In this document: positions 3,840 to 29,745 of the stretch, piece after piece
Numbering within the stretch: the first letter of the stretch is position 1
Layout of the letters: the number at the start of each line of letters is the position of its first letter
Source: Minisyncoccota bacterium
GTDB taxonomy: Bacteria; Patescibacteriota; Minisyncoccia; Phycocordibacterales; JABAAK01
DNA: 39,632 bases
Assembly: GCA_958295675.1 (NCBI GenBank)
Contig: OY282360.1
Location: forward strand, 424,394-464,025
Reading direction: 5' to 3'
Position numbers and translations under genes: made by a program
Notes under the pieces: model-generated
What the model was told of the DNA's origin: nothing
The model's input: the letters and a program-made list of their open reading frames with translations, nothing else
Database searches by the model: none

Positions 3840-5309
3840 ATGAAGCAATCAACTATGCCACAAGTACAAGAACACGATACAAAGAAAAAGGCATATTTTA
3901 TCGGCATCGCCGGCGCGGGAATGAGTGCCACCGCTCAACTTTTAAAAACACTCGGCTGGGAGGTGAGCGGTTCTGATCAGGGCGCGTATCCGCCGATTAC
4001 CACATATCTTGAGAAGCGCGGTATCCCGTACACAACTGTTTACAATAAAAATAATGTTCCTATGGATGCTGATCTTGTGGTTGTGGGAAAGCATGCAGGA
4101 CTTACTAAAGAAGAGAATGAGGAAGTCGCGTTTGTATATAACAATAATTTCACCATACAATCATTTCCTGAAGTTCTTAACAAACTAACAAAAGATACCG
4201 GCAATATCGTCTGTGTCGGCAGTCACGGCAAATCAACCTGCGCCGGCATACTGGCATGGTGCCTTGCCGAACAGGATCCGAGTTTTTTTATCGGTGCCGT
4301 GCCGTATAACCTTGAAACAAACGCGCAATCAGGCAAAGGAAACTTGTTCGTGCTTGAGGGTGATGAATATCCGGCATCAAACACGGACAATACTTCAAAA
4401 TTTCTCTACTACAACGCATCCGATGTACTCCTCACTTCCCTGGAGCATGATCACCTGAATATATTCAAAACACAGGAAGAGTACACTGCCCCATTTCTGC
4501 GACTTATTGAATCGCTTCCCACAAACGGTTTGGTAGTCGCGAGCGGCAAGGATAGACAGATACAAAAAACAATACCTCAGATACAAAGAAAAGTTATAAC
4601 CTACAGCACAGACGAGGATATAGAAACTGATTGGTACGCGAAAAACATCACCTATGGAGAAGAAACAACTTTTGATGTATACCGAGACCGGACTCATATC
4701 ACAACACTGACAACTACCCTACTCGGACAGCATAATGTAGAAAATATAATCGGTGCTTCCGTGTTACTGCTTGAGAAAAAATATAGTACCGAAAAAGATT
4801 TGCAGAAAAGAATACATACATTCACCGGCATTGAGCGAAGATTGGATAAAAAAATAACTGATTCAGTGATCCCGCTGTACGAAGGTTTCGGTTCATCACA
4901 AAGCAAGGTGCGCTCCGCAATAGAAGCGATAAAAACACATTACGATAACAAACGGCTTTTGGTTATCTTTGAACCGCATGCTATTTCATGGAGAAAAAAA
5001 GAATATACTTCCAAATACCAAAAACTTTTCAAAGAGGCGAACAAGGTATATGTCTATATTGACTCTGTCCCGGAACCGAAAGATAACACCACTATATCAG
5101 GCAGTGACATACTTACTCACATTCAAAAAGAAAGCGGTGCGGATGCGGTACAGCTTCACAAGGATTGCACTCCGCTTCTTCAGGAAATACAACAGGAAGA
5201 TATCATCCTGTTTCTTTCTTCGGGCAATATGGATGGCGCGCTTCAAACGCTTATTCAAACATTAAAACAGCAATTTTCACCAAGGCAAAACAGGAGAATA
5301 TCTGAGTAA
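3840..5309 (+). CDS. mpl: Mur ligase of the MurC/Mpl family, best fit murein peptide ligase Mpl
   Basis: 'FIGIAGAGMS', P-loop 'GSHGKST', 'EGDEY....D..SKFLYY', 'DHLNIF', 'FEPH'; the SKF segment resembles Mpl more than MurC. Confidence 0.7.
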   Translation: MKQSTMPQVQEHDTKKKAYFIGIAGAGMSATAQLLKTLGWEVSGSDQGAYPPITTYLEKRGIPYTTVYNKNNVPMDADLVVVGKHAGLTKEENEEVAFVYNNNFTIQSFPEVLNKLTKDTGNIVCVGSHGKSTCAGILAWCLAEQDPSFFIGAVPYNLETNAQSGKGNLFVLEGDEYPASNTDNTSKFLYYNASDVLLTSLEHDHLNIFKTQEEYTAPFLRLIESLPTNGLVVASGKDRQIQKTIPQIQRKVITYSTDEDIETDWYAKNITYGEETTFDVYRDRTHITTLTTTLLGQHNVENIIGASVLLLEKKYSTEKDLQKRIHTFTGIERRLDKKITDSVIPLYEGFGSSQSKVRSAIEAIKTHYDNKRLLVIFEPHAISWRKKEYTSKYQKLFKEANKVYVYIDSVPEPKDNTTISGSDILTHIQKESGADAVQLHKDCTPLLQEIQQEDIILFLSSGNMDGALQTLIQTLKQQFSPRQNRRISE

Positions 5310-16225: not shown

Positions 16226-16784
16226 TATAGAAACAAAAGATGTATTTGACGCTACGAAGAAAAAAGCACAGGATTTAGAAATAAGCGTTGTCGGTGTGTA
16301 CAGTTATTTAAATGATACATACGAAGCATATACACAGGAAACATTACCGGCATTATGGGATTTGCTGCGGAACATAGACACGCTCATAGGTTTTAATAAC
16401 AACCATTTTGATACCCCGCTCCTGAACAAATACGCTCCGATGGATTTAACAAAAGAATACAAAAGCATAGATCTTTTAGAAAGCGTGCGTATCTCACTCG
16501 GCAGAAGAATCCGTCTTGATTGGATTGCTGAAGGAACACTGGGCATCAAAAAAAGCGGAGACGGTCTGCAGGCAGTACGCTGGTGGCAGGAAGGGGAAGT
16601 GGAAAAGGTAAAAGAATACTGTCTTGATGATGTGAAAATCACCAGACAAATATTTGATTATGCAGCAAAAGAAAAAGAGTTGAAATATAATGATCTCGGA
16701 ACAGTCCACACAATTCCGATAGATACCTCTGAATGGAAAGATAAAGAAATGACACCGGAAGAGGCAACTGTTAGTTTATTCTGA
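16206..16784 (+). CDS. Ribonuclease H-like / DnaQ-fold exonuclease domain protein (YprB-like)
   Basis: 'VFDIET', 'IGFNNNHFD', 'YCLDDVKIT' acidic exonuclease motifs. Confidence 0.85.
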   Translation: MKGLVFDIETKDVFDATKKKAQDLEISVVGVYSYLNDTYEAYTQETLPALWDLLRNIDTLIGFNNNHFDTPLLNKYAPMDLTKEYKSIDLLESVRISLGRRIRLDWIAEGTLGIKKSGDGLQAVRWWQEGEVEKVKEYCLDDVKITRQIFDYAAKEKELKYNDLGTVHTIPIDTSEWKDKEMTPEEATVSLF

Positions 16785-16790
16785 TATGGA

Positions 16791-16799
16791 TGGTATAGT
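16791..16799 (+). promoter_or_regulatory. Extended -10 promoter (TGgTATAGT) of repeat-protein paralog A
   Basis: Same TGGTATAGTGC is conserved upstream of paralog B; 8 nt to ATG in both. Confidence 0.6.
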
Positions 16800-16807
16800 G
16801 CGTATGT

Positions 16808-17923
16808 ATGAATATGGCAGAACGCTGTACAGATTTGTGGAAACAATACAGAATATTCGGAACACTGAAAGACCAGTACATGAAAACTCTTTCTCACCAC
16901 GGTATGCATTCAACAGAAGCAGGAACAGCGAGAGAAAGATTTGATATAAAAAAGAAAGAAATTCTCACTACGATTGACGAGATCAACAAACTTCCTGCGT
17001 TTCATGTTACTCGTGTTTTGAAAGGATTATGGGAACGCAAAGAAGCTCAACCTCAGTATATTGCCGGTGCTCTTATTGGTATTGGCACGCCCGAATCGAT
17101 GAGAATGCGGAAAGAACTATTGCATGTAATGGGTACTCATCCAGTAATGGGTACTCATCCAGATGTTATTCTTAGTCTTGTAGGAGTCGGTACTCCTGAG
17201 GCAATGGCGATGCGAAGAGAATTTTTAGAAAACGGTGTTGATCCGGGCATTGTCGTCAGAAGTTTAGTCGGTATCGGTACTCCTGAGGCAATGGCGATGC
17301 GAAATGAATTCCTAGAAAAAAATGTTGATTCCATGCGCGTCACCTACAGTCTTGTCGGGGTCAGCACACCGGAAGCAATGACAATGCGAAAAGAATTATT
17401 AAAAAAAGGGGTTGATCCTATGTATATCGCCCACAGCCTTGCAGGAGTCAGCACACCGGAAGCAACAACGATGTGGAGGAAAATATTAAGAAAGATTCTT
17501 AATAGGAAAGATTCTGTTCATTGTGCTCTTGGTCTTATCGGAGTCAATACAGATGAAGCAATGAGAATACGAAGAAAACTGCTAAAGAAAGAAAAAGATT
17601 ATGATTTTATTGTCAGAAGTCTTGCCGGTGTCACCACCGCCGAAGCAATGAGAATGCGAAAGGAATTGCTGAAAAAAATTCATCCTGTCGCCATTGCTCA
17701 GAGTCTGGCAGGGGTCAGCACACCGGAAGCGAATGAAATGCGGGAAAAACTTCAGGAAAGAATGTTGATTCATGAGAATCTTGCTCAGAGCTGCGTCGGT
17801 GTACACACCGAAGAAGTAGAAGAATTCAGACAAAAATATTTTATCGGCGATGAATTAGCATCAAGCTATGGAAGTAGAAGTGTCGAAGAAGCAATTATCT
17901 GTCGATATGGCTACGAACAGTAG
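16808..17923 (+). CDS. Uncharacterised alpha-helical (HEAT-like) repeat protein, paralog A
   Basis: Nine ~29-aa repeats 'SLxGVxTPEAMxMRxxLL'; N-terminal ~90 aa and C-terminal CRYGYEQ shared with 28552-29715. Confidence 0.85.
   Translation: MNMAERCTDLWKQYRIFGTLKDQYMKTLSHHGMHSTEAGTARERFDIKKKEILTTIDEINKLPAFHVTRVLKGLWERKEAQPQYIAGALIGIGTPESMRMRKELLHVMGTHPVMGTHPDVILSLVGVGTPEAMAMRREFLENGVDPGIVVRSLVGIGTPEAMAMRNEFLEKNVDSMRVTYSLVGVSTPEAMTMRKELLKKGVDPMYIAHSLAGVSTPEATTMWRKILRKILNRKDSVHCALGLIGVNTDEAMRIRRKLLKKEKDYDFIVRSLAGVTTAEAMRMRKELLKKIHPVAIAQSLAGVSTPEANEMREKLQERMLIHENLAQSCVGVHTEEVEEFRQKYFIGDELASSYGSRSVEEAIICRYGYEQ
17126..17161 (+). repeat. Exact 18-bp tandem duplication (VMGTHP x2)
   Basis: GTAATGGGTACTCATCCA twice, in frame. 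Confidence 0.95.
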
Positions 17924-18011
17924 TATTGTATAAAACTAATGAAAGATGGAATAGATGTAGATAACTGCACACTTATGCCGCAACCACTTAACACATTTAA
18001 TCAATAAAAAA

Positions 18012-18039
18012 ATCCCACCAGCGTTTCCACCGGTGGGAT
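18012..18039 (-). repeat. 28-bp hairpin boundary repeat, copy 1 (terminator-like)
   Basis: Minus strand ATCCCACCGGTG-GAAA-CGCTGGTGGGAT then T-run. Confidence 0.9.
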
Positions 18040-18066
18040 AAGTGAGAGTGTGCCAACAGATCTACT

Positions 18067-18207
18067 TTAGTGAACACGCGGTGTATTGTTGTTAGCAATC
18101 GCCGCCGATCACACCCGCAAATCAGCATCCTTTGTCAGTTTGGCGAGGACTGCCAGCGGTGTGTTGGGGTGGCAAGCAATGCTCACTCGAAATAGCTTCA
18201 GTTTCAT
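18067..18207 (-). pseudogene. Minimal LRV-repeat cassette with premature stop
   Basis: MKLKLFRVSIACHPNTPLAVLAKLTKDADLRV*SAAIANNNTPRVH*; TGA at 18111-18109 aligns to CGA in paralogs 26619-27002 and 27178-27483; GGGAGG SD intact. Confidence 0.75.
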
Positions 18208-18265
18208 GTTGACCTCCCGCGGTCTCCGTGTGAAAGAGCAGAAAACAATCTGCCATCTGATATAC

Positions 18266-18294
18266 AATATACAGGTATTAGTGCAATACGTCAA
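18266..18294 (-). promoter_or_regulatory. Sigma70-type promoter TTGACG-N17-TATATT
   Basis: Same layout and spacing at 19222-19250 and 27626-27654. Confidence 0.7.
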
Positions 18295-18335
18295 GTATCC
18301 CTCACAGAATATTCTTGTTTTCAATATATAAAAAA

Positions 18336-18363
18336 ATCCCACCAGCATTTCTACTGGTGGGAT
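18336..18363 (-). repeat. 28-bp hairpin boundary repeat, copy 2
   Basis: Minus strand ATCCCACCAGTA-GAAA-TGCTGGTGGGAT then T-run; compensatory G-C to A-T change next to loop. Confidence 0.9.
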
Positions 18364-18410
18364 AAGTGAGAGAACGCTCCTAGTGGGAGAAGGCGAAGAA
18401 ACTATACTAC

Positions 18411-19163
18411 TCAATCCCTATTTTCTTCTTGCCAATTGGGATTCTTGGCAACCGCCCCACGAACTTTTGAGCTGGAATCTTCTGACAGTTTTTTGAGGAG
18501 ATTCAACGGTGTGCTAGCGTTCTTGGCGACTTCCAATCGCACCTGCCAATGTGTATCCTTTGCCAGTTCGGCAAAGATTGTCGGTGGTATGTTTGTGCTA
18601 TCCTTTTGAGCAAGCACCGCTCGCACCCGCCAATTCGCATCCTGTACCAGTTTGGCGAGAACTTTTGATGGTGTACTACCGTTACCAAAAACCGCCTGAC
18701 GCACACGCTGATCCGCATTCTGTGCCAGTTCAACAAGAGCTTTCGGTGGTGTGCTGCCGTTGGAAGAAACTGCCTGCCGAACAGTCACAGCTGCATCTTG
18801 TGCCAATGTGGCGAGAACTGCCGGCGGTGTGCTACCGTTGGAAGCAACTTCATGCCGCACTGACCAATACGCATCTGTTGCCATGTCAGCAAGGACTGCC
18901 GGCGGTGTGTTGATGTGGCGAGCAACCGCAAGCCGCACCCGCCAATTCGCATCCTGTGCTAATTGTGCAAGTACTCCTTGTGGTATGCAATCGTGGAAAG
19001 CAACCACTTCTCGCACCTGCCAATGTGTATTGTTTGCCAGTTCGGCAAGAAGTTTTGGCGATATATTTTTGGCGAGAAGTTTTGGCGATGTATTTTTATG
19101 GCGGACAAGCAATCGCAAAACGAGTACGAACACACGCAAATCCACAAATAGCTTCAGTTTCAT
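18411..19163 (-). CDS. LRV (leucine-rich repeat variant)/HEAT-like repeat protein, 250 aa
   Basis: 26-aa repeats 'NxxTPPxVLAxLAxDxxWxVRxxVA'; start 19163 after AGGGGG SD (ORF track extends into the leader). Confidence 0.85.
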   Translation of the reverse strand: MKLKLFVDLRVFVLVLRLLVRHKNTSPKLLAKNISPKLLAELANNTHWQVREVVAFHDCIPQGVLAQLAQDANWRVRLAVARHINTPPAVLADMATDAYWSVRHEVASNGSTPPAVLATLAQDAAVTVRQAVSSNGSTPPKALVELAQNADQRVRQAVFGNGSTPSKVLAKLVQDANWRVRAVLAQKDSTNIPPTIFAELAKDTHWQVRLEVAKNASTPLNLLKKLSEDSSSKVRGAVAKNPNWQEENRD

Positions 19164-19321
19164 GTTGACCCCCTGTGGTCTCCGCGTGAAAGAGCAGAAA
19201 ACAATCTGCCATCTGATATACAATATACAAGTATTAGTGCAATACATCAAGTATCCCTCACAGAATATTTTTGTTTTCAATATATATAAAAAAATCCCAC
19301 CAGCGTTTCCACTGGTGGGAT
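19146..19321 (-). repeat. ~175-bp direct repeat; partner 18190-18363
   Basis: See partner. Confidence 0.9.
19222..19250 (-). promoter_or_regulatory. Sigma70-type promoter TTGATG-N17-TATATT
   Basis: Homologous to 18266-18294 and 27626-27654. Confidence 0.65.
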
Positions 19322-19342
19322 GGGTTGAGGAATGATTCCTCT
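19294..19342 (-). repeat. 28-bp hairpin boundary repeat, copy 3, with adjacent palindrome GAGGAAT-N-ATTCCTC
   Basis: Hairpin 19294-19321 is the exact reverse complement of 28454-28481; 49-bp match to 28433-28481 with 2 mismatches. Confidence 0.9.
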
Positions 19343-19454
19343 ACACACAAGTAACTACGGTGTATTGTAGTATTTTCACAAAAAGATGAAAGTATAAACA
19401 ATAGTGTTCGGCAGCATACTTATCAAGAAAATAATACGATATACTGACTGATAT

Positions 19455-20192
19455 ATGAAACAAACATCGTCGCCAAAGGAAGAAAAAAATGGGGTACTCT
19501 CACTCTTCACGGATATACTTATCATTGCCATTACCCTTATGATAAGTACAGTTCTGCTGATGCAGCATAACACTATCATAAGCGCGGTAGCAGATAACCG
19601 AGAAGACCGATACCACCGACCGGTTGATCCGAAGGCAGATCTCATCTTTGGTAATCCAAATGCGGATATATTCATTGTTGAATACGGCGATCTTGAGTGC
19701 CCGCACTGTCGTGATTCTCACGCGCACATACAAACTCTAATAAAGAGTGACTGGGGTATTTCAGGCACAGTCGCATGGGTATGGAGAAATGGGTTTCATC
19801 TTGCCCGTTCGTCAGTAGAAAAAGCAAAAGCACTTGAATGCGTCCGTTTGCACGCCGGAGAACGAGCAAACAATAAGGCATGGGCATTTATGGAAGAATC
19901 GCTCAGTGGAGGTATATACGAAAACAAATATCCTTTGGAACGATATCGGGAAATCGCGGAACAATTAGACATTCCGTTTGAGCGTGTAGAAATCTGTAGA
20001 AAAAATAATGAAGTTGCGCGGCAAATGTCACAGGCGATAACAGATATTGAAGAATTGAACATCACTGAAACCCCGTACATTCAATTCATCTCAGGAAACG
20101 GTGAACTGCTGTTTGAAAGTGTTGGTTTACTCACCACTTCACAGCTTGAAAGTTTTATCGCAAAAATAATTCACAGCAAGCAAGAAGATTAA
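19455..20192 (+). CDS. DsbA-family thioredoxin-domain protein, membrane anchored
   Basis: TM helix, 'GNPNADIFIVEYGDLECPHC', cis-Pro loop 'TETP'. Confidence 0.85.
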   Translation: MKQTSSPKEEKNGVLSLFTDILIIAITLMISTVLLMQHNTIISAVADNREDRYHRPVDPKADLIFGNPNADIFIVEYGDLECPHCRDSHAHIQTLIKSDWGISGTVAWVWRNGFHLARSSVEKAKALECVRLHAGERANNKAWAFMEESLSGGIYENKYPLERYREIAEQLDIPFERVEICRKNNEVARQMSQAITDIEELNITETPYIQFISGNGELLFESVGLLTTSQLESFIAKIIHSKQED

Positions 20193-20194
20193 TA

Positions 20195-21562
20195 TTACCC
20201 ACGGATCTCTTTTTTGATAGTATCAGTCAATGCAGAAATAGCTACTCTATTCTGTTTCATAGAATCCCGCTGACGAACGGTAACACTGTCGTCTTTCAGG
20301 GTATCATAGTCCACAGTCACCGCGAACGGCGTACCGATTTCATCAGTCCGTCTGTATCGCTTGCCGATAGCACCGGTTTCATCGTAGTGTACGCTGAAAT
20401 GCGGGGCAAGCATTGTGTATATTTCCCGCGCTTTCTCCGGCAAACCATCTTTTTTCATAAGAGGAAGAACGGCAACAGTAATAGGAGCAAGTGAGGGACG
20501 CAGCCGCAATACTACCCGTTCACTGCCGTCCGGTAATTCCTCAACGGCATACGCATCATGTAACACCGCCAAAAACAAACGACCAATCCCGATTGAGGTT
20601 TCAACAACATGCGGGACAATATGCTTATCGGTATCCTGATCAAAATAAACAAGTTTTTCTCCTGTATGCTTTGTGTGCTGCATTAAATCATAATCTCCAC
20701 GATCATGAATACCCTCTAACTCCTTCCAGCCGAATGGATATTTATGCTCTATATCCTCCGCAGCGCGGGCGTAAAACACAAGCCGTTCATGCGGTGTGAT
20801 TCGCAGATGTTCTTTCTGCAAACCGAGATTCTGCAAACTCTCCAGTCGAATACGGCGGAATTCTTCAAAAAACTTCCCGCTCTCCCCTTCCCGAACAAAA
20901 TACTGCATTTCCATCTGCTCAAACTCCCGGGTACGGAATAGAAACTGCCGCGGTGATATCTCATTGCGAAACGCTTTTCCTATCTGCGCGATACCGAACG
21001 GTAATTTAAGATGCATCGTATCCAGCACCTGCTTAAAATTCACATAGATACCCTGACAGGTCTCACCGCGCAAATATACATCTTCAAAATTATCAGCAGC
21101 TCCTATATTTGAAGTGACCAACAGGTTCTGAAATTCAGGTTCCTCTAAATCATTCGGGTCACATCCTTCCGGCTTCAAATTGCTTCTATGTTTCTCAAAT
21201 ACTTCACGAAATTCTTCAAGAGTCATTCGTTCGTCAGCGGAAACACCTATATCTTCAAGAAGGTGATCAGCGCGAAACCGCTTCCCTGTCTTTCCGCACA
21301 CGGTTACAGGATCAGAAAAACCATCGGTGTGTCCGGATGCTTTCCACACTTTTGGATGCATCACGATACCTGCATCAAGACCGACAATATCCGAACGCAT
21401 GCGTACCATAGTATTCCACCAATCCTGCTTCAAATTACGCAACAATTCAACGCCAAGCGGACCATAATCGTACACACCGCCAAACCCGCCGTATATCTCT
21501 GAAGAAAGAAACACAAAACCACGTTTCTTTGCAAACGAAACTAATGTCTCAAGTGTATGCAT
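20195..21562 (-). CDS. glyQS: Glycine--tRNA ligase (single-chain homodimeric type)
   Basis: 'KKRGFVF.SSEIYGG', 'YDYGPLG', 'LRGETCQG', 'FRNEISPRQFLFRTREFEQME', 'IGKRYRRTDEIGTPF'; start 21562. Confidence 0.95.
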   Translation of the reverse strand: MHTLETLVSFAKKRGFVFLSSEIYGGFGGVYDYGPLGVELLRNLKQDWWNTMVRMRSDIVGLDAGIVMHPKVWKASGHTDGFSDPVTVCGKTGKRFRADHLLEDIGVSADERMTLEEFREVFEKHRSNLKPEGCDPNDLEEPEFQNLLVTSNIGAADNFEDVYLRGETCQGIYVNFKQVLDTMHLKLPFGIAQIGKAFRNEISPRQFLFRTREFEQMEMQYFVREGESGKFFEEFRRIRLESLQNLGLQKEHLRITPHERLVFYARAAEDIEHKYPFGWKELEGIHDRGDYDLMQHTKHTGEKLVYFDQDTDKHIVPHVVETSIGIGRLFLAVLHDAYAVEELPDGSERVVLRLRPSLAPITVAVLPLMKKDGLPEKAREIYTMLAPHFSVHYDETGAIGKRYRRTDEIGTPFAVTVDYDTLKDDSVTVRQRDSMKQNRVAISALTDTIKKEIRG

Positions 21563-21569
21563 AGCAATA

Positions 21570-22505
21570 TTAGTATACCTTTTTTTCCTGCTCAATCTCT
21601 TTATGCAACAATAGGAGTTTTTTCATATCTTCAAACCGACCGGTACGGGTTGAATCCAAAACGACAAGAGCGAATAAGGTGTCATTGCGCTCAACGACCA
21701 TAATAAGTGCGCCTCCGGCGATATCTGTGTATCCGGTTTTTGAGAGTAAAATACGCTCCGATAACGAACCAATAAGCTCATTTGTATTTTTCGCGTCGTA
21801 TTGAATACCATCTAGAGAATAAAAAGAACCTTTTTCATGTACTGTTTGTTCGGCGAGTTCCGGTTGATCATTGACGATAATACCGGCAATTTTTGCCATA
21901 TCAAACACCGAACTTTCAGAACCGGCGAGTGTATCATGCGCGTCTAATCCGGTTGGATTGATGAAATGAGTGTGAACAAGCGCATGTTGCCGGACAAAAT
22001 CATTCATAAGATCAACAAGAGATGTCCCTGTTTTATCCTCAATCGTTCTGCCGACCGCATTGATCCCTCTATTGGAGGAAGTGATGAGAGAGTACGCGAG
22101 CAAATCCGAGGTATGCCAGGTATCGCCAAGTCGGAGCGGTGTTGTCGCTTCTATCTCAAAATCAACAGAATCCAATACTGTGATGTCTGTCTCATCAAGA
22201 CGAGGGTATGCGAGCAGTGCCGCTGTCAATTTTGTAATGGAAGCAATTGATTTCGGGGTTGTGATATTTTTCCCGGCGACAACTGTATCTCCGGTAATAT
22301 TATAGATAACCGCGGCATCAGCGGACACCTCATCGGTAATATGATAATAAGAGTCCTCTACATGCGGTCTGACGACAAAATCATCGGTAATAAAAAAAGC
22401 GATGAGATAGACAATCAAAAAAACAGCAATGAAAGCGGAACACGAAATAACATATGTCGGATACATACTTCGCGTTTCATCTTGTCTGACTCCGTTCTGA
22501 TCCAT
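21570..22505 (-). CDS. D-alanyl-D-alanine carboxypeptidase (peptidase S11)
   Basis: SxxK 'ASITK', SxN 'SSN', 'FINPTGLD', 'KTGYT'. Confidence 0.9.
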   Translation of the reverse strand: MDQNGVRQDETRSMYPTYVISCSAFIAVFLIVYLIAFFITDDFVVRPHVEDSYYHITDEVSADAAVIYNITGDTVVAGKNITTPKSIASITKLTAALLAYPRLDETDITVLDSVDFEIEATTPLRLGDTWHTSDLLAYSLITSSNRGINAVGRTIEDKTGTSLVDLMNDFVRQHALVHTHFINPTGLDAHDTLAGSESSVFDMAKIAGIIVNDQPELAEQTVHEKGSFYSLDGIQYDAKNTNELIGSLSERILLSKTGYTDIAGGALIMVVERNDTLFALVVLDSTRTGRFEDMKKLLLLHKEIEQEKKVY

Positions 22506-22590
22506 ATTGTATATATTGGAATAGTATACCCCATATTTATTGCTGTTTCATCAAATTTTTAAAAACATAGAGATTAGACGAAGTGCTTAA

Positions 22591-23130
22591 CTATTCCTCC
22601 ATCTTCTTCTTAGTCGCGCGCAAACCTTCTAAAATATCCCGTCTGACAGTTTTGTAGTCCGGCAGGTCTTTTGTTTTTTGGAGTCCGAGGTGCGATAAAA
22701 AATCAACCGTCACAACAAGCATTTTCTTGCCGCCTTCTTTTTGTTCCTGAATGAGACCTCGCACCGCCAAACGCCGAACGGTATATTGTGTATTCACACC
22801 GCGCAGGAAATCAAGATCAACTTTTGCTATCGGTCCGGCATAGGCAATGATAGATAGAGTTTCCTGAGATGCCTTTGATAACGGAGCATTCTGATCTTCC
22901 GATCGGGTATGTTGTATAAATTCTCTTAGAGCAGGATTAGTCGCGAGCGCGACTCTGGATCCGTCGTCAAGAACCGTCACACCGCTATCTCGACAGGTAT
23001 CACGCAGTTCATTGATAAGATCTTCCAAACGGTCGTCTCCACACCCGATAAGGACGGATAAACGCTTTTTAGAAATCGGCGCGCCGTTAGTAAATAGAAT
23101 TGCCTGTAATTGTGCTAACGCATTATTCAT
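22591..23130 (-). CDS. scpB: SMC-Scp complex subunit ScpB
   Basis: 'LQAILF', 'LSKASQETLSIIAY', 'FLRGVN', 'FLSHLGL....LP'. Confidence 0.9.
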   Translation of the reverse strand: MNNALAQLQAILFTNGAPISKKRLSVLIGCGDDRLEDLINELRDTCRDSGVTVLDDGSRVALATNPALREFIQHTRSEDQNAPLSKASQETLSIIAYAGPIAKVDLDFLRGVNTQYTVRRLAVRGLIQEQKEGGKKMLVVTVDFLSHLGLQKTKDLPDYKTVRRDILEGLRATKKKMEE

Positions 23131-23858
23131 AACATTGCTCTTCGTTCCTGTTTTGTCAGCAGGATATCATCAAATTCTTTTCCCTGTTCTGCCGTGAGAA
23201 GATCCTTGCGCATTAGCTCAAGAATCGCAAGAAATGAAACTATCTTCTCCTGTTTTTTTCGTCCTGACACCACACTACTGAATGAAACTGATATACGGTT
23301 GGTCAGTGTATCAAGAACACGGCTGATAACTGCTTCTATAGAAATAAGCTTGCGCGCTTTTTTCCGTAGAGGAAGCCTGAAAGATGAAAGATCTTTAATA
23401 ACTAAAAGCGCATTTCGATGCACACTTGCCGATGTACATGAGGCATCGGGAGCAAAAATAATCTCTTGTTCATGTCCGGGCGGAGAAATAGGAAATGAAT
23501 ATATATCCCAATGATCAAGTGACGGCACAGCATGTTTCTGGATGTAACTGTACAGGCGCATTCTGTCTTCCAACACAGCAACATCAACTTCTTCTTCCTT
23601 AGTGTATTCTAAAAGCGGTAACAGTGATTTTGATTTTATAAGCACCAAAATAGAGGCGATATGCACAAAACGAGCAATTTCCTCAGCCGGTACTTTTGCC
23701 GCTTGTCGTATATGTGAAATATAATCAGCGGTTATTTTTGCCAGTGAAATAGTATTTATCTGAAGTTTTCGCCGTTCTATCAATTGGTATAACAAATCAA
23801 GCGGACCCTCAAACTGGTCCAGAGAAACAATAAAATTAGTATTGCTCGTGTTATTCAT
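23127..23858 (-). CDS. scpA: Segregation and condensation protein ScpA
   Basis: 'FEGPLDLLYQLI', 'IKSKSLLP', 'IVSFLAILEL'; adjacent to scpB. Confidence 0.9.
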   Translation of the reverse strand: MNNTSNTNFIVSLDQFEGPLDLLYQLIERRKLQINTISLAKITADYISHIRQAAKVPAEEIARFVHIASILVLIKSKSLLPLLEYTKEEEVDVAVLEDRMRLYSYIQKHAVPSLDHWDIYSFPISPPGHEQEIIFAPDASCTSASVHRNALLVIKDLSSFRLPLRKKARKLISIEAVISRVLDTLTNRISVSFSSVVSGRKKQEKIVSFLAILELMRKDLLTAEQGKEFDDILLTKQERRAML

Positions 23859-25185
23859 ACAGCCGTGTATCAATACGTCCGCGATCGCGCGGAAACAGAG
23901 CGGCCTCTTTCGCGTTCGCCAATCCGAGCATTTTTGCGGTCAAGCGTTCCAATCCGACAGCCATCCCTCCGTGCGGGGGCATGCCGTATTTAAATGCCTG
24001 CAGATAAAAACCGAATGTTTTTTCGGGATCTGTACCGGGAATCTTTTGTCGTATTTTTTCAACCAGCGTTGCATAGTCATGTATCCGCTGTCCGCCGCTG
24101 CTGATTTCCACGCCACAAAAAAGAAGATCAAAACTTTTAGTATAACCGGGATCATTTTCATCCTCGTACGCGTACATTGGCCGCTTTTCAACAGGATAAT
24201 GGGTGATAAAAATAAAATCAGAATTAAACTGTGAAAGAGCGTATTCGCATAACAAACGCTCATGCTCAGGAGTGAGATCCGGTTCTCCCTCGCAAGCAAT
24301 ATCAAACTCCTTCTCAAGTATGCGCTGTGCTTCTGTTAATTTTATAGAAGGAAAATCATGAGCAGGAAGCGCGGGGATCTCTGCATCAAGTACTGCAAAC
24401 TCCCGCTTCACCTCCTGTGCAAGTGTTTCAACAACAGAACGCATACATCCTTCAAGCATACGCATGACATCAGTGTGATCCGAGATATATCCCATTTCAA
24501 AATCTAAACTCGTATATTCATTGGTGTGCCTGGAGGTACTATGTTTCTCCGCCCGAAAAACTTCCCCGACACAAAATACCCGCTCAAAAACACCTGTCAT
24601 AATCTGCTTATACAACTGCGGACTGGTCGCCAGCGACACCTTTTTATCAAAATAATTAACAGAAAAAACTTCGGCTCCTCCTTCCGCATCACCACCGACA
24701 ATACATGGCGCCTGAAACTCAATAAAATCATGTGTAACGAGATATTCCCTGAACGCGCGGACAATACAGGCCTGCGTACGGAATACAGCACTATCTTCGT
24801 CGCGTCGCAATGTGATAGGACGATAATCAAACTTGGTATCTACATTTACAGCACTTTGTATATCAAACGGCAATTCATCAGCATGGGATAAAACAGTCAA
24901 TGTTTCAATAACAAATTCAATATCTCCGTTATCGCCTTCGGTTCTATTTTTCTCCGGACGCTCCTGTACCGTACCAACTAACGAAAGCACACTTTCCGGT
25001 GAAACTCTCTTCGCTTCCGTGAACAAGGTATGCGAATCAGACATAAAACACTGAACACTGCCGGAACGGTCAACAAGGTCAATGAACAACATTTTGCCAT
25101 GGTCACGCAATGAAGCAACTTTCCCGGAAACAGAAACTGACGAACCTGCATGACTGTGCAAATTTGCTATGAGAGTTCTCTCCAT
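23851..25185 (-). CDS. aspS: Aspartate--tRNA(Asp/Asn) ligase, short non-discriminating type
   Basis: OB fold, 'AEGGAEVF', 'SPQLYKQ', 'FRAEKHSTSRH', 'EISSGGQRIH', 'GMPPHGG'; no GAD insert. Confidence 0.9.
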   Translation of the reverse strand: MERTLIANLHSHAGSSVSVSGKVASLRDHGKMLFIDLVDRSGSVQCFMSDSHTLFTEAKRVSPESVLSLVGTVQERPEKNRTEGDNGDIEFVIETLTVLSHADELPFDIQSAVNVDTKFDYRPITLRRDEDSAVFRTQACIVRAFREYLVTHDFIEFQAPCIVGGDAEGGAEVFSVNYFDKKVSLATSPQLYKQIMTGVFERVFCVGEVFRAEKHSTSRHTNEYTSLDFEMGYISDHTDVMRMLEGCMRSVVETLAQEVKREFAVLDAEIPALPAHDFPSIKLTEAQRILEKEFDIACEGEPDLTPEHERLLCEYALSQFNSDFIFITHYPVEKRPMYAYEDENDPGYTKSFDLLFCGVEISSGGQRIHDYATLVEKIRQKIPGTDPEKTFGFYLQAFKYGMPPHGGMAVGLERLTAKMLGLANAKEAALFPRDRGRIDTRLYE

Positions 25186-25208
25186 ACCGTCATAGTGTAG
25201 CACAGCAC

Positions 25209-26228
25209 TCACCTAAACCATTTTTGCTTATGCGGAATACCGAGCCCGAGCATGCGACGCACTTCATTAAGACGATCAGTAAATAATGTATCCATTTTCT
25301 TCCGATGCTGTCCGAGTAAGCGATCAATATAGCTGCTATTATTCTCTAATTTGGCATATGTTTCCCGCGCATCTTTGAAATAATCAAGATAAGCATCAAC
25401 AAGCATTTCTTTCAATTCCTTGTAGGATATCTTTCCATGAAGACATTTATTCGCCACATCCCCGTATTTTTCTCGTGACAAAAGCAATTCAAGGTATGAA
25501 CAAATGGTGCAATTGTCCGGTCGTATTGGTTGACCTGCAGGAGTAGAATCGGTCGTGATGCCCATAATGCGTTTCCGTATCTCCGTCTCGTCGGCAAATA
25601 TCGGCAGAACATTATCATATGATTTACTCATTTTCCTGCCATCAATACCGGGCACAACAGCGGTCTCTTTTACAACCTGTTCCTGTGGTTCAGAAAAATA
25701 TCGTGTTTCAGTAAGCATATTAAACTTACGCGCAATTTCCCGCGCCATCTCCACATGCTGAACTTGATCCTTGCCTACCGGCACCGTATTAGCACCAAGC
25801 AATAAAATATCCGCTGCCATAAGCACTGGATACAAAAAAACGCCGAGACCGGGTTCTTTCTCCTGCTGCAACGCATCCTTATACGCATGTCCGATAGTAA
25901 GGAATTGGTGTTTCAGGAGACAACTGAAAATCCAAGTCAATTCAGTAATTTGCGGAAATTCCGACTGTCGATATATAACTGTTTTTTTCGGATCAACACC
26001 TAACGCCACATATGCGCGGATAACATCGTGTGAATACTTTTCAAAAAGATTGCTATCATGCCGGCTATCCGCATCGCTGCAACCGGTAAGTGCATGTAAA
26101 TCAGCAAGAAAAACAAACATTTCTCCGGAATCCTGTAGATCAACTATCTGACGAATAGTGCCGAAATAATTGCCGAGATGTATACTTCCGGTCGGTTTAA
26201 TACCTGTAATAATCTTTCTGTTTGCCAT
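25209..26228 (-). CDS. trpS: Tryptophan--tRNA ligase
   Basis: 'TGIKPTGSIHLGNY', 'YPVLMAADIL', 'VPVGKDQ', 'KMSKS'. Confidence 0.95.
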   Translation of the reverse strand: MANRKIITGIKPTGSIHLGNYFGTIRQIVDLQDSGEMFVFLADLHALTGCSDADSRHDSNLFEKYSHDVIRAYVALGVDPKKTVIYRQSEFPQITELTWIFSCLLKHQFLTIGHAYKDALQQEKEPGLGVFLYPVLMAADILLLGANTVPVGKDQVQHVEMAREIARKFNMLTETRYFSEPQEQVVKETAVVPGIDGRKMSKSYDNVLPIFADETEIRKRIMGITTDSTPAGQPIRPDNCTICSYLELLLSREKYGDVANKCLHGKISYKELKEMLVDAYLDYFKDARETYAKLENNSSYIDRLLGQHRKKMDTLFTDRLNEVRRMLGLGIPHKQKWFR

Positions 26229-26285
26229 ATATGATAGTATATCGTACTTTCCTATTAACTTTTATTAAGAATCAGTCCTCAATTC

Positions 26286-26313
26286 ATTCCACCAGTGGAA
26301 ACACTGGTGGGAT
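26286..26313 (+). repeat. 28-bp hairpin boundary repeat, copy 4
   Basis: ATTCCACCAGTG-GAAA-CACTGGTGGGAT then T-run; no co-oriented gene directly upstream. Confidence 0.9.
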
Positions 26314-26327
26314 TTTTTTATATATTT

Positions 26328-26511
26328 AGGGTGTATACTCTGACTTGCTATTTTAAGGGTTTACGATTTATCGGTAAGTTATCAACATCGTTGCTATTGT
26401 GCGAGGTATACTGTGATTAAGAATAATAAGTATTATGCCAATAAACTTCACTGAAAGCACTCTGTTTACCAGCGATAACCTACCGATGTGGTATGTCAAG
26501 GGATACACCCC
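26328..26511. mobile_element. Putative MITE-like non-coding insertion (~184 bp)
   Basis: Imperfect terminal inverted repeats GGGTGTATactcTGAC / GTCAagggATACACCC, subterminal ATCGGTAAGTTATC / GATAACCTACCGAT, flanked by ATATTT direct repeats; absent from the paralogous leader near 27075. Confidence 0.6.
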
Positions 26512-26629
26512 ATATTTTTAAGGTTTATTTTTTTAGAAAACATGATATACTGTATTAGGCGATGGAAGATTTCTCTTTCATCCGGGTCAACGTCAACTGA
26601 AGCAAAGGAGGGCTATACATGGGTAAAAC
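26512..26629 (+). repeat. ~115-bp leader direct repeat (extended -10 TGaTATACT, stem-loop, AAAGGAGG, MGKT start); partner 27078-27188
   Basis: Near-identical to partner apart from a GTCAAC duplication and a few substitutions. Confidence 0.85.
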
Positions 26630-27002
26630 GGCAGATTTGGGAGTACGGTTAGAAACTGCCAAGGACCGTCGCACATCAACCGAAGAACTCACGCGACTCG
26701 CTAGGGATGTAGATTGGCGGGTGCGAGGGGAGGTTGCCCAACGCGGGGAAACATCAAAAAAGACTCTCATCAATCTTGCGGAAGATCCAATTTGGATAGT
26801 GCGGTACCATGTTGCCCTCAATGACAACACACCGTCAGAAACGCGTACACAACTTGCTCAAGATGAAGACTGGCAGGTGCGGCAAGCGGTTGCTCGTCAT
26901 GGCAGCACACCTCCGGAAACGCTTGTGCGACTAACACAGGATGTGGATCAGCGGGTTCGAGCGGCAGCGATTGCTAACAACAACACGCCGCTTTCTCACT
27001 AA
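26619..27002 (+). CDS. LRV/HEAT-like repeat protein, 127 aa
   Basis: ~4.5 26-aa repeats 'TxxExLxxLAxDxDWxVRxxVA'; AAAGGAGG SD. Confidence 0.85.
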   Translation: MGKTADLGVRLETAKDRRTSTEELTRLARDVDWRVRGEVAQRGETSKKTLINLAEDPIWIVRYHVALNDNTPSETRTQLAQDEDWQVRQAVARHGSTPPETLVRLTQDVDQRVRAAAIANNNTPLSH

Positions 27003-27029
27003 AGTAAATCTGTTGGCACACTCTCACTT

Positions 27030-27057
27030 ATCCCACCAATGGAAACACTGGTGGGAT
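27030..27057 (+). repeat. 28-bp hairpin boundary repeat, copy 5
   Basis: ATCCCACCAATG-GAAA-CACTGGTGGGAT then T-run; 26951-27057 is an ungapped 107-bp inverted homolog of 18012-18118. Confidence 0.9.
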
Positions 27058-27177
27058 ATTTTTTGTATATTTTGTATATATTTCTAAGGTCTATTTTTTA
27101 GAAAACATGATATGCTGTATTAGGCGATGGAAGATTTCTCTTTCATCTGGGTCAACTGAACCAAAGGAGGGCTATAC

Positions 27178-27483
27178 ATGGGTAAAACAGTGAGTTTGAA
27201 AGCACGATTGAGAGCCGCCAGAGACCGTGACACAGCGCCGGAAATCCTTGCAAAATTGGCGACAGATGTGAATTGGCGGGTGCGATTAGCAGTTGCTTCT
27301 AATGGCAATACACGATTTAAAGTCCTCACCAAACTGGCAGAGGATGCGGATTGGTTAGTGCGACAGTCAGTTGCTTACAATAACCGAACACCACTGAAGA
27401 TGCGTGTACGGCTGATGGAGGATACGAATTGGTGGGTGCGAGCGGCGGCGATTGCTAACAACAACACGCCGCGCTTTCGCTAG
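27178..27483 (+). CDS. LRV/HEAT-like repeat protein, 101 aa
   Basis: Exactly one 26-aa repeat shorter than 26619-27002; same MGKT start and AAAIANNNTP end. Confidence 0.85.
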   Translation: MGKTVSLKARLRAARDRDTAPEILAKLATDVNWRVRLAVASNGNTRFKVLTKLAEDADWLVRQSVAYNNRTPLKMRVRLMEDTNWWVRAAAIANNNTPRFR

Positions 27484-27533
27484 AATAGGTCTGCTGGTAC
27501 ACTCTTTTTCGTTGTGAGAGTGTTCCTCAACTC

Positions 27534-27561
27534 ATTCCACCAGCGTTTCCACTGGTGGGAT
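27534..27561 (+). repeat. 28-bp hairpin boundary repeat, copy 6 (core inverted)
   Basis: ATTCCACCAGCG-TTTC-CACTGGTGGGAT then T-run; loop reads TTTC instead of GAAA. Confidence 0.9.
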
Positions 27562-27625
27562 TTTTTATATACACTAACTAAATTACAAAAAACTTTAAAA
27601 AATATTTAAGGAATAAGTCAAGTGA

Positions 27626-27654
27626 TTGACATATTATACTAATACATATATATT
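27626..27654 (+). promoter_or_regulatory. Sigma70-type promoter TTGACA-N17-TATATT
   Basis: Consensus -35, 17-bp spacer, homologous to left-array promoters. Confidence 0.75.
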
Positions 27655-27714
27655 ATATATCAGATGGCACATTGCCTTTCCCCCTTTCACACAGAGATCG
27701 AAGGAGATTCTCAC

Positions 27715-28413
27715 ATGAAACTATGCACACTTTTGAGTGCGTTTGTATGCACCCTGTTTCTGAGCGTTTCGGCACATGCCGAACAGAGGATCAATCACAA
27801 CACACCACCAGAAGTTCTCGCCGTCATGGCAGAGGATACAAATGTGCGTGTTCGGCGAGAGGTCGCTCGCAATGACAACACACCGCCGGCATCGCTCGCC
27901 GTCCTGGCAAAGGATGCGGATGTGGGTGTCCGGCAATGGATTGCTGGCAACGACAACACACCGCCGGCATCGCTCGCCGTCCTGGCAGAAGATACAGGTG
28001 TGTATGTTCGGCGAGGGGCTGCTGGCAACGACAACACACCACCGGACATTCTCACCAAACTGGCGAAAGATGAAAATGTACATGTTCGGGCAGCACTTGC
28101 TTCCAACGGCAGCACACCGCCGGCATCGCTCGCCGTTCTGGCGACGGATGTGGATGTGTATGTTCGACGATTGGTTGCTGGCAATGACAACACACCGCCG
28201 GCATCCCTCGCCGTTCTGGCGACGGATGCGGATGCGTCTGTTCGGCGTACGGCTGCTCGGCATCCCAACACGCCGCCGGCAACGCTCGCCATCCTAGCGA
28301 CGGATGCAAATATGCGTGTTCGGCGAGAGGTCGCTCGCAATGACAACACACCGCCGGCATCCCTCGCCGTCATGGCAGAGGATGTAAATGTACAAGCGAT
28401 TCTTGTGGAATAA
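27715..28413 (+). CDS. Secreted LRV/HEAT-like repeat protein, 232 aa
   Basis: AAGGAG SD, Sec-type signal MKLCTLLSAFVCTLFLSVSAHA|EQ, ~8 26-aa (78-nt) repeats 'NDNTPPASLAVLAxDxxxxVRxxxA'. Confidence 0.85.
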   Translation: MKLCTLLSAFVCTLFLSVSAHAEQRINHNTPPEVLAVMAEDTNVRVRREVARNDNTPPASLAVLAKDADVGVRQWIAGNDNTPPASLAVLAEDTGVYVRRGAAGNDNTPPDILTKLAKDENVHVRAALASNGSTPPASLAVLATDVDVYVRRLVAGNDNTPPASLAVLATDADASVRRTAARHPNTPPATLAILATDANMRVRREVARNDNTPPASLAVMAEDVNVQAILVE

Positions 28414-28432
28414 CTACTCATCCATTCGCTCA

Positions 28433-28481
28433 AGAGGAATTATTCCTCAACTCATCCCACCAGTGGAAACGCTGGTGGGAT
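28433..28481 (+). repeat. 28-bp hairpin boundary repeat, copy 7, with adjacent palindrome GAGGAAT-N-ATTCCTC
   Basis: ATCCCACCAGTG-GAAA-CGCTGGTGGGAT at 28454-28481 then T-run. Confidence 0.9.
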
Positions 28482-28551
28482 ATTTTTTATTCTTTTTGTT
28501 TTTAGCTTGATATATCAAACTATTATACTCCTATACTTTTTTAGAAAAATA

Positions 28552-29715
28552 CTATTGTTCATAGCCATACCGACAGACAAGTGTATTTACAATCACACTA
28601 TTGGTTGCATAACTGAACGGCAATACAGCATCGGATAGGTATTTTTTTCTGAATGCCTCAGCTTCACCAGTATGTACACCGGCAAGACTGTAGGCAATCT
28701 CTCTTATATTAAGACCATTTTCCATTAACTCCTTCCGCAATGCCATCGACTCCAGTGTACCGACACCTGCGAGAGACATAGCAACGCAATACAGTTTTGA
28801 TGTTTCAGGTGAAAGGATACCTATCGAAAAAGAGCGGGAAGTAGTATATCCCAAATCAAAACTATCTTCCAATATCTCCTTCCGCATCGTCATTGCTTCA
28901 GATGTTTTAATGCCAACAAGACTGGTCACTATAATCACAGGATGAACTTTATTTTGTCTAAATATCTTCTTTCGCATCGCCATCGATTCTGATGTCTCAA
29001 CACCAGGAAGACCAATATCAATTCGTCCAGTGGAATCATTTTCTAATAATTTCTCCCACATCACCATCGCCTCAGGAGTATCAACGCCACTGAGACCATC
29101 AGCAATATCTCGTAAATCAATATTTTCTTTAAACAACTTATTCCGCATCGCCATTGACTCTGGTGTACCGACACCTACGAGACTTTGAGCAATCGCACCA
29201 GAATCAACAACACCCCGTTCCAGCAAATCTGCCCGCATTGCCATTGACTCTGGTGTACCGACACCTGCGAGACTTCGAGCAATCGCACCAGAATCAACAA
29301 CACCCCGTTCCAGCAAATCTGCCCGCATTGCCATTGACTCTGGTGTACCGACACCTGCGAGACTTCGAGCAATCGCACCAGAATCAACAACATCCTGTTC
29401 AAGCAAATCTTTCCGCATTCTCATCGATTCGGGTGTGCCAATGCCGACAAGGGCGTCGACAATATATTCAGGGTCAGTTTTTTTGCGTTCCCATAATCCT
29501 TTCAGCACACGAGTGACATGAAACGCGGGAAGTTTGTTAATCTTTTCAATCGTGGCTAGAATTTCCTTCTTTTTTGTGTCAAATCTCTCTTTCGCTATTT
29601 CTGCTTCTGTTGAATGTATACCGTGGTGGAAAAGATTTGTTATGTACTGCTCTTTCAGTGTTCCGAGTATGCTGTACTGTTTCTGGAAATCTGTGCAGTG
29701 TTCTGCCATGTTCAT
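28552..29715 (-). CDS. Uncharacterised alpha-helical (HEAT-like) repeat protein, paralog B
   Basis: Nine ~29-30-aa repeats; homologous to 16808-17923; start 29715 by alignment. Confidence 0.85.
   Translation of the reverse strand: MNMAEHCTDFQKQYSILGTLKEQYITNLFHHGIHSTEAEIAKERFDTKKKEILATIEKINKLPAFHVTRVLKGLWERKKTDPEYIVDALVGIGTPESMRMRKDLLEQDVVDSGAIARSLAGVGTPESMAMRADLLERGVVDSGAIARSLAGVGTPESMAMRADLLERGVVDSGAIAQSLVGVGTPESMAMRNKLFKENIDLRDIADGLSGVDTPEAMVMWEKLLENDSTGRIDIGLPGVETSESMAMRKKIFRQNKVHPVIIVTSLVGIKTSEAMTMRKEILEDSFDLGYTTSRSFSIGILSPETSKLYCVAMSLAGVGTLESMALRKELMENGLNIREIAYSLAGVHTGEAEAFRKKYLSDAVLPFSYATNSVIVNTLVCRYGYEQ
29150..29419 (-). repeat. 90-bp tandem repeat, ~3 copies
   Basis: Units start 29150, 29240, 29330; encode 'VVDSGAIARSLAGVGTPESMAMRADLLERG', near-identical at DNA level. 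Confidence 0.95.
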
Positions 29716-29745
29716 ACACATGCACTATACCACACTCATCATGTA

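Follow-up and report, generated by a model that had tools for sequence, protein, structure and literature searches.

The DNA analyzed here is a stretch of 39,632 nucleotides (nt) from a Minisyncoccota bacterium (assembly GCA_958295675.1), referred to below as the window. It covers positions 424,394 to 464,025 of contig OY282360.1 and lies wholly within this single genome contig of 724,510 bp, which has a G+C content of 46.9%. Two arrays of genes for LRV repeat proteins were found in the window, and both are punctuated by copies of a conserved 28-nt hairpin, each named below by its first position (H18012 and so on). The original prediction, made from the window alone, regarded the arrays as an expandable repertoire of cassettes exchanged at the hairpin, with ordinary duplication of a gene and its terminator as the simpler explanation.

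The left array is on the minus strand and begins with the leading hairpin H19294 (19294–19321), which has the consensus 28-mer sequence. It is followed by an LRV gene of 250 amino acids (aa) from MKLKLF (18411–19163, approximately 8–9 repeats of 26 aa) and by H18336 (18336–18363), in which the loop-closing pair is A-U and not G-C, both sides being changed. The next unit is a truncated LRV open reading frame (ORF) of 32 aa with approximately one repeat (18109–18207), in which an in-frame TGA occurs before the C-terminal tail usual in the family. The array ends with H18012 (18012–18039), where one A-to-G change gives a G-U pair; this copy lies between the LRV array and the convergent gene GIG_L.

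The right array is on the plus strand. Its leading hairpin H26286 (26286–26313) is 57 nt from the trpS start codon. LRV127 (26619–27002, approximately 4 repeats) is followed by H27030 (27030–27057), which has one A-C stem mismatch, and LRV101 (27178–27483, approximately 3 repeats) by H27534 (27534–27561), whose central 10 nt are inverted compared with the other copies. Neither LRV127 nor LRV101 has a signal peptide. The N-terminus of LRV249 (27715–28413, 232 aa from MKLC, approximately 8 repeats) resembled a signal peptide by eye. The last hairpin, H28454 (28454–28481), has the consensus sequence and lies between the LRV array and the convergent gene GIG_R. The ORF listing and Pfam agreed with the gene order originally described for both arrays.

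All four intact LRV genes of the window matched the Pfam family LRV (PF01816), with E-values of 1e-13 to 5e-31 and scores of 50.5–105.4 bits against a cut-off of 21.6. The repeat period was 26 aa. The number of repeats did differ among units, as predicted, with a range of approximately 1 to 8–9 per window gene in place of the earlier 1.5 to 8.

Each unit had also been credited with its own promoter. A consensus scan detected sigma-70-like promoters for three LRV units: P1 of the 250-aa gene (TTGATG-17-TATATT, 19222–19250, minus strand, read from 19250 to 19222) and its sister copies at 18266–18294 (minus strand, read from 18294 to 18266) and 27626–27654 (plus strand, 11/12 matches). For LRV127 and LRV101, only a −10-like box was found, and this was read by eye. 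The promoter types differ among units, and the next start codon lies approximately 100 to 305 nt from a hairpin.

A conserved stem-loop in the 5' untranslated region (UTR), GATGGAAGA-TTTC-TCTTTCATC, was seen before the Shine-Dalgarno (SD) sequence of LRV127 (26561–26582) and LRV101 (27126–27147). At the equivalent place in a related LRV unit at 390 kb (genome position ~390540) stands GATGAGAG..CTCTTATC, which suggests a compensatory change in this stem-loop. A spacer of approximately 200 nt (26314–26510) separates the leading hairpin from the LRV127 promoter; it contains a −10-like TATACT and a possible ORF of 28 codons (~26436–26522). Read evidence in this work came from Logan contigs of four runs of one sample, at a depth of 2–10x, in which rare variants are dropped. 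A diverged variant contig over 26361–26511 was present in three of the four runs.

Distribution and anatomy of the hairpin

The window was searched with the pattern ATYCCACCAGTGGAAACRCTGGTGGGAT, allowing up to three mismatches, and 100 dinucleotide-preserving shuffles served as control. All seven predicted copies (18012, 18336, 19294, 26286, 27030, 27534, and 28454) were recovered with 0–2 mismatches each, while none was found in the shuffles and none was expected. The original remark that the hairpin was seen nowhere else in the window was right; in the rest of the genome, five more sites were found. In the genome (92% complete), the 22-nt hairpin core with up to two mismatches gave 11 matches, and the reversed control pattern gave 0. 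Four of these copies lie beyond the window, in a third LRV array approximately 10 kb past its end. A twelfth, degenerate copy with six substitutions lies 3' of an LRV gene at genome position 390608.

All 12 sites adjoin LRV genes, in four loci, and no copy was seen in an unrelated context. Therefore, the hairpin is not a generic genome-wide terminator, which the original prediction had named as the outcome that would speak against it. Ten of the 12 copies are co-oriented with an LRV gene and lie 27–50 nt downstream of its stop codon, the exceptions being the two leading copies. The 22-mer core was absent from all 40 relatives searched. Among public contigs it was found in four metagenome and five genome stretches, all nine with unrelated flanks and no similarity to LRV or GIG genes.

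Read in gene sense, the hairpin consists of a 12-bp stem and a GAAA tetraloop, followed by 5–7 U. All seven window copies folded as predicted, with energies of −18.5 to −29.8 kcal/mol including flanks and z-scores of −2.8 to −6.2. A run of 5–7 T within 8 nt 3' of the stem was present in gene sense in 12 of 12 copies, and the opposite side lacked such a run. The stem is preceded by a short spacer and a second, smaller and weaker hairpin (GAGGA..TCCTC or a variant). In H19294, this S-type 5' flank (small hairpin GAGGAAT..ATTCCTC) occupies 19322–19342 and the T-run 19287–19293, and the fold with the flank reached −29.8 kcal/mol (z −6.0). The S-type flank of H26286 is degenerate and starts at approximately 26269. 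Within 14.5 kb around the arrays, these hairpins were the sole strong terminator-like sites. At the Rfam gathering threshold only two tRNAs were detected in the window.

When the 11 good copies were anchored on the hairpin, mean pairwise identity was 0.8–1.0 over positions 0 to +31 and approximately 0.4–0.7 from −20 to −1. From this profile, the shared unit is a terminator module of approximately 56 nt.

Across the 12 copies, 140 of 144 stem cells formed standard pairs. The 14 variant cells comprised 7 one-sided changes (G-U type), 3 two-sided changes, and 4 unpaired cells. As to the claim that most stem changes are G-U or compensatory, covariation did not rise above shuffles (63 of 500 reached the observed score). 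The consensus U-G pair and the seven one-sided changes pair on the gene-sense strand only. Because the opposite strand would have C-A, a mismatch, in place of the consensus U-G pair, the structure favors the gene-sense transcript.

The loop had been described as GAAA in all copies, which was correct for the others and not for H27534, where it reads UUUC in gene sense. In this copy the loop and two closing pairs (10 nt) are inverted, while the 5' flank and the T-run keep gene sense. The flip was covered by contigs with 0 differences in three runs of the one sample. The palindrome is therefore subject to events at the DNA level.

Two inserted modules around a housekeeping core

A housekeeping core (19455–26228) separates the two arrays. 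It comprises a DsbA-like gene, glyS, a D-Ala-D-Ala carboxypeptidase-like gene, scpB, scpA, aspS, and trpS; these names come from similarity judged by eye, with Pfam support for the DsbA-like gene only. In the closest same-genus genome (G001, TrpS 67% identical) a 192-aa ORF, the DsbA-like gene, glyS, the carboxypeptidase-like gene, scpB, scpA, aspS, trpS, and rpsI are contiguous, with nothing between them and no LRV genes. The two window arrays therefore belong to inserted modules. The left module (16782–19342, minus strand) consists of GIG_L and the left LRV array, with H19294 at its inner edge, and the right module (26269–29741, plus strand) consists of the right LRV array and GIG_R, with H26286 at its inner edge. 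Both are absent from the syntenic sites of G001. The modules share an outer inverted repeat of 334 nt (84% identity), which covers the promoters and 5' parts of the GIG genes, and an inner inverted repeat of 57 nt (91%), which is formed by the leading terminator modules, 6,930 nt apart. As judged from these sequences, the window arrays are two homologous inserted modules that flank the housekeeping core in inverted orientation.

These two modules, each with a complete terminator module as its inner end, give rise to the N+1 pattern of hairpins noted in the original prediction. Each leading copy has the complete module, from about −17 to −21. They were thought to have no adjacent gene to terminate. 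They do abut divergent genes, DsbA-like and trpS; on the minus strand, however, H19294 would have transcription to stop. The DsbA-like gene (plus) and glyS (minus) converge with 2 nt between their stop codons (20192–20195) and no terminator-like hairpin between them, so H19294 is the first strong minus-strand terminator after the trpS-to-glyS string. Likewise, H26286 is the first strong plus-strand terminator after the DsbA-like gene. Each of the two convergent transcripts would run antisense through the other gene.

The outer genes of both modules converge on the LRV arrays. GIG_L (16808–17923, plus) encodes 371 aa with repeats of approximately 29 aa (motif '..GVGTPEAMAMR..'), and GIG_R (28552–29721, minus) encodes a paralogue of 389 aa with 57% aa identity to GIG_L over residues 1–308. 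As they share just 57% of residues, either the modules were duplicated long ago or each was acquired on its own. The GIG proteins belong to no Pfam family; nothing meaningful was found for them in Pfam or NCBIfam, and GIG_L had no usable match in the ESM Atlas. Weak GIG-repeat matches occurred in 4 of 200 other genomes of the order.

Extended −10 boxes of the TGnTATAGT type lie a few nt before the start codons of GIG_L and GIG_R. Together with the DsbA-like gene and trpS, these genes have a −10 box just 5–11 nt before the start codon and no SD sequence (16780–16810, 19430–19457, 26228–26250, and 29720–29745), and the G001 orthologues show the same arrangement, which suggests that such genes in the genus have leaderless or nearly leaderless mRNAs.

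Origin of the hairpin pattern

Our interpretation, held at about 70%, is that the 28-mer hairpin is an intrinsic terminator copied with LRV genes as the family expanded, and not a dedicated cassette-exchange site. The anatomy, distribution, synteny, and module homology were established directly, and we infer termination in vivo, a relic origin of the leading copies, and an insulator role. The module of approximately 56 nt (small upstream hairpin, 12-bp stem with GAAA loop, U-run) would end each independently transcribed LRV gene of one clade. It would have been copied along with the genes as tandem and segmental duplications enlarged the repeat-protein families of the lineage, and recombination among coding repeats would have altered the repeat number inside the genes. 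The window arrays would then be parts of two homologous modules of old origin, inserted in inverted orientation around the core and each combining an LRV array with a convergent GIG gene. The leading hairpins, complete terminator modules at the inner edges, are most likely the remnant of a former upstream unit. They may be retained because they still block read-through into the array, and genome streamlining could have removed a decayed upstream unit except for its still-useful part.

Ordinary duplication of gene and terminator was the best-supported part of the original prediction, given the terminator anatomy, the 10 of 12 copies after an LRV ORF, and the same pattern in other arrays of the genome. 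Its proposal of a cassette repertoire with exchange at the hairpin was not borne out: no integron-type integrase or HUH enzyme was found, the third array lacks a leading hairpin, the truncated gene is a chimera with its breakpoint in the repeats, and the contigs show the reference order only. In the recombinase check that it called for, the genome had one tyrosine recombinase (PF00589), which is Xer-like and scores 127 bits against a cut-off of 265 for integron integrase (TIGR02249), and one large serine recombinase at 39 kb, approximately 400 kb from the arrays. The Y1/HUH (RAYT) transposase family PF01797 had 0 matches in the 92% complete genome, and no invertase lies close to the arrays. 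The RecA gene is present.

Contigs from the four runs bridged all seven hairpins in reference order, and this was the single order seen. Contig joints such as 18325/26515 and 18832/28384 resembled rearrangements. Their segments match paralogous loci at genome positions 390597–390632 and 478737–478769, and the joints were therefore rejected as cross-mapping.

In the truncated ORF, the 176 nt from hairpin position 0 through the promoter as far as codon 6 match the neighboring gene at 93.8% identity, whereas the last 100 nt with the hairpin match the end of LRV127 at 85%. This ORF is thus a chimera of neighbor and LRV127-type parts, with one breakpoint within the coding repeats and not at the hairpin.

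Several observations weigh against a terminator that was simply copied with its gene. The hairpin is an island of conservation, as identity beyond −20 and +36 is just 0.25–0.35, the random level. Alignable promoter regions between the modules are just 76–79% identical, well below the hairpin, and GIG_L and GIG_R have 57% of residues in common. More compensatory turnover than was observed would be expected from structural selection alone. Two variants, A40 and T25 (alignment columns), are common to right-array neighbors with differing flank types, which hints at local conversion. The only recent long tract within the arrays, the 176 nt of the truncated ORF, starts exactly at hairpin position 0. 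Moreover, both leading copies begin at a common point to within ~2–4 nt, namely where the small hairpin starts, and no recognizable trace of an upstream gene was found there. The conservation of the hairpin, its boundary, the tract, and the shared variants fit either strong purifying selection acting on a very strong terminator or concerted evolution and recombination with the module as anchor.

A rival reading is that the terminator module is also a portable stretch of homology or a recombination junction, at which RecA or replication slippage would shuffle units without a dedicated recombinase. Units could then be duplicated, deleted, converted, or inverted between hairpins, within and between the three arrays. 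We consider this unlikely, at perhaps one chance in several, and it would add to the duplication of terminators with genes rather than exclude it. The near-identity of approximately 36–56 nt and the palindromic stem, with a hairpin far better kept than its flanks, would suit such a junction, as would the 176-nt tract from position 0, the variants shared despite differing flank types, the loop flip at 27534, and the presence of RecA. H19294 is in addition a mosaic, with an S-type 5' flank 94.8% identical to that of H28454 and a P1-type 3' flank like that of H18336. Passages of PMC12928735 describe chloroplast genomes in which hairpin inverted repeats of 11–24 bp drive flip-flop inversions and an inverted pair of 53 bp drives an inversion of 22 kb. 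On the other hand, the leading boundary of the third array is not at a hairpin and the other breakpoint of the truncated gene is in coding repeats. The contigs (2–10x, one sample, rare variants dropped) showed no variant hairpin joints, the shared variants amount to two sites only, and selection on a strong terminator could yield equal conservation. A stronger form of the proposal, slightly less probable still, makes the module the junction of a recombinase-free cassette system, in which the near-identical palindrome would anchor RecA or replication template-switching and whole promoter-to-terminator LRV units would be copied, lost, converted, and moved among the three arrays. In it, the inverted leading pair of 57 nt would be able to flip the 6.9-kb housekeeping core, and the terminators would be kept identical as shuffling sites.

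Specific recognition of the hairpin, as the operator of a dimeric DNA-binding protein or as a protein-bound RNA stem-loop for coordinate regulation of the family, appears improbable to us. It would account for a copy before the first gene and for conservation beyond structural need. The 12-4-12 palindrome is perfect, and 7 of 11 copies, both leading ones included, lie upstream of the promoter of the next unit. However, the hairpin-to-start distances and promoter types given above vary, three copies have no downstream LRV gene, and no copy precedes the first gene of the third array. The analysis turned up no candidate binding protein, and the asymmetric U-G pair points to gene-sense RNA. The poorest prospect, largely refuted, is a small mobile element resembling a repetitive extragenic palindrome (REP) or a miniature inverted-repeat transposable element (MITE), or an integron attC site, with a dedicated enzyme to move it. 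This description would fit a short intergenic palindrome that has discrete boundaries and flanks two arrays in N+1 copies. The enzyme searches above, the confinement of all copies to LRV genes, the perfect stem without extrahelical bases, the own promoter of each unit, the absence of the 22-mer from the 40 relatives, and its single, unrelated matches in public collections argue against it. Integrons were rejected as there is no IntI and the units have promoters of their own (three scanned, the −10 boxes of LRV127 and LRV101 by eye) and are not promoterless cassettes; REP/RAYT elements and MITEs were rejected on the 0 matches to PF01797 and on the 12 sites, all beside LRV genes and none dispersed.

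The hairpin shares with intrinsic terminators a GC-rich 12-bp stem, a GNRA-type tetraloop, a run of 5–7 U, a location 3' of co-oriented ORFs, and wobbles that fit the transcribed strand. Unlike typical ones, it is near-identical at 11 sites despite random-level flanks, two copies have no gene directly upstream, and one loop is inverted. The attC sites of integrons have extrahelical bases and an R/L box layout. As in attC arrays, short genes are set apart by a folded site of single-strand type at every boundary (N+1), whereas here IntI is missing, the stem is perfect and followed by a U-run, and each unit has its own promoter. REP sequences and bacterial interspersed mosaic elements (BIMEs) are likewise short imperfect palindromes in intergenic 3' regions, able to stabilize or terminate transcripts. 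They differ from the present case, where no Y1/HUH gene was found and the 12 copies belong to one gene family, with none dispersed.

Small flip-flop inversions at chloroplast hairpins were reportedly described by Kim and Lee in 2005. The likeness to the window lies in a loop seen in both orientations (27534 against the other 10 copies) and in stem length, given as 11–24 bp in passages of PMC12928735; in contrast, the hairpin here is a bacterial terminator with only one flipped copy. Literature searches on terminators, tandem arrays, and gene conversion gave nothing on bacteria of this kind. In the main text of articles, supplementary files aside, no prior description of LRV families in the candidate phyla radiation/Patescibacteria was found.

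Repeat-gene families in the genome

As a co-duplicated terminator, the hairpin itself is ordinary, and its genomic context is more informative. LRV-like coding sequence amounts to approximately 22 kb in 10 merged intervals, so that a genome of 0.72 Mb invests 3% of its length in LRV genes, in addition to LRR-like and GIG repeat arrays. LRV and GIG genes are nearly or wholly missing from five same-genus genomes (one weak LRV match among the five, GIG in 0 of 5); this comparison covered the LRV and GIG families. Each gene forms a promoter-to-terminator unit of its own, with a variable repeat number between constant ends, as would suit binding proteins that are specific to the lineage and diversify rapidly, some of them probably exposed at the surface. 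Such a set is relevant to the dealings of ultra-small bacteria with their hosts or partners. If identical terminators do guide recombination, this would be a simple means of shuffling gene units without a recombinase, and in the stronger form of that proposal the terminators would be shuffling sites for a fast-evolving binding-protein repertoire in a minimal symbiont genome.

The other LRV arrays, at 347–349 kb, 350–354 kb, and 385–391 kb, have their own conserved terminators. Genome-wide, 32 of 89 stringent terminator-like hairpins fell into 11 repeated groups tied to tandem arrays. A second terminator family, CCCCRAACAY-loop-RTGTTYGGGG, with approximately 15 sites and compensatory variants, follows LRV genes and an LRR-like repeat family at 396–404 kb. 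As other repeat-gene arrays carry conserved terminator families of their own, co-amplification of gene and terminator is general here. Constant ends (promoter, 5' UTR, and N-terminus on one side; C-terminus, 3' UTR, and terminator on the other) around a variable repeat core are the rule in this genome.

The Vlp/Vsa-type lipoprotein arrays of mycoplasmas are variable repeat-protein families with constant ends. As in those, tandem paralogues here share promoter, 5' UTR, signal-peptide region, and 3' end, repeat numbers range from 1 to approximately 19, and some proteins have signal or lipoprotein peptides. Unlike Vlp/Vsa proteins, several members lack a signal peptide and the repeats are LRV (PF01816).

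The region at 396000–404000 (locus L042, 11200–19200) is a large plus-strand array of LRR-like repeats of 21–22 aa ('LTSAKGLTLPEEIGGDL'), with genes from one repeat up to a protein of 799 aa. Their terminators are of the second family, which, together with its 5' flank, is also found at neighboring LRV genes. A minimal one-repeat gene between two hairpins in this region parallels the truncated ORF of the window.

The third array with the window hairpin is on the minus strand (genome 474379–478271) and holds four LRV genes, each followed by a hairpin. It has no leading hairpin, and its first promoter comes directly after the stop codon of an upstream holB-like gene. Synteny with G001 was uninformative for this array, since rpoB is not adjacent to the holB-like gene there. 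The −35 box of the first gene of the array is directly preceded by 9 consecutive G (genome ~478990–479010; locus L041, ~5100–5110). The tract is interrupted in the sister promoters and is a possible slipped-strand tract.

Back in the window, between the leading hairpin of the left array and the DsbA-like gene, CCGAACAC occurs at 19404–19411 on the minus strand and is followed by a degenerate partner. This site looks like one half of the second terminator family, perhaps left over from another unit.

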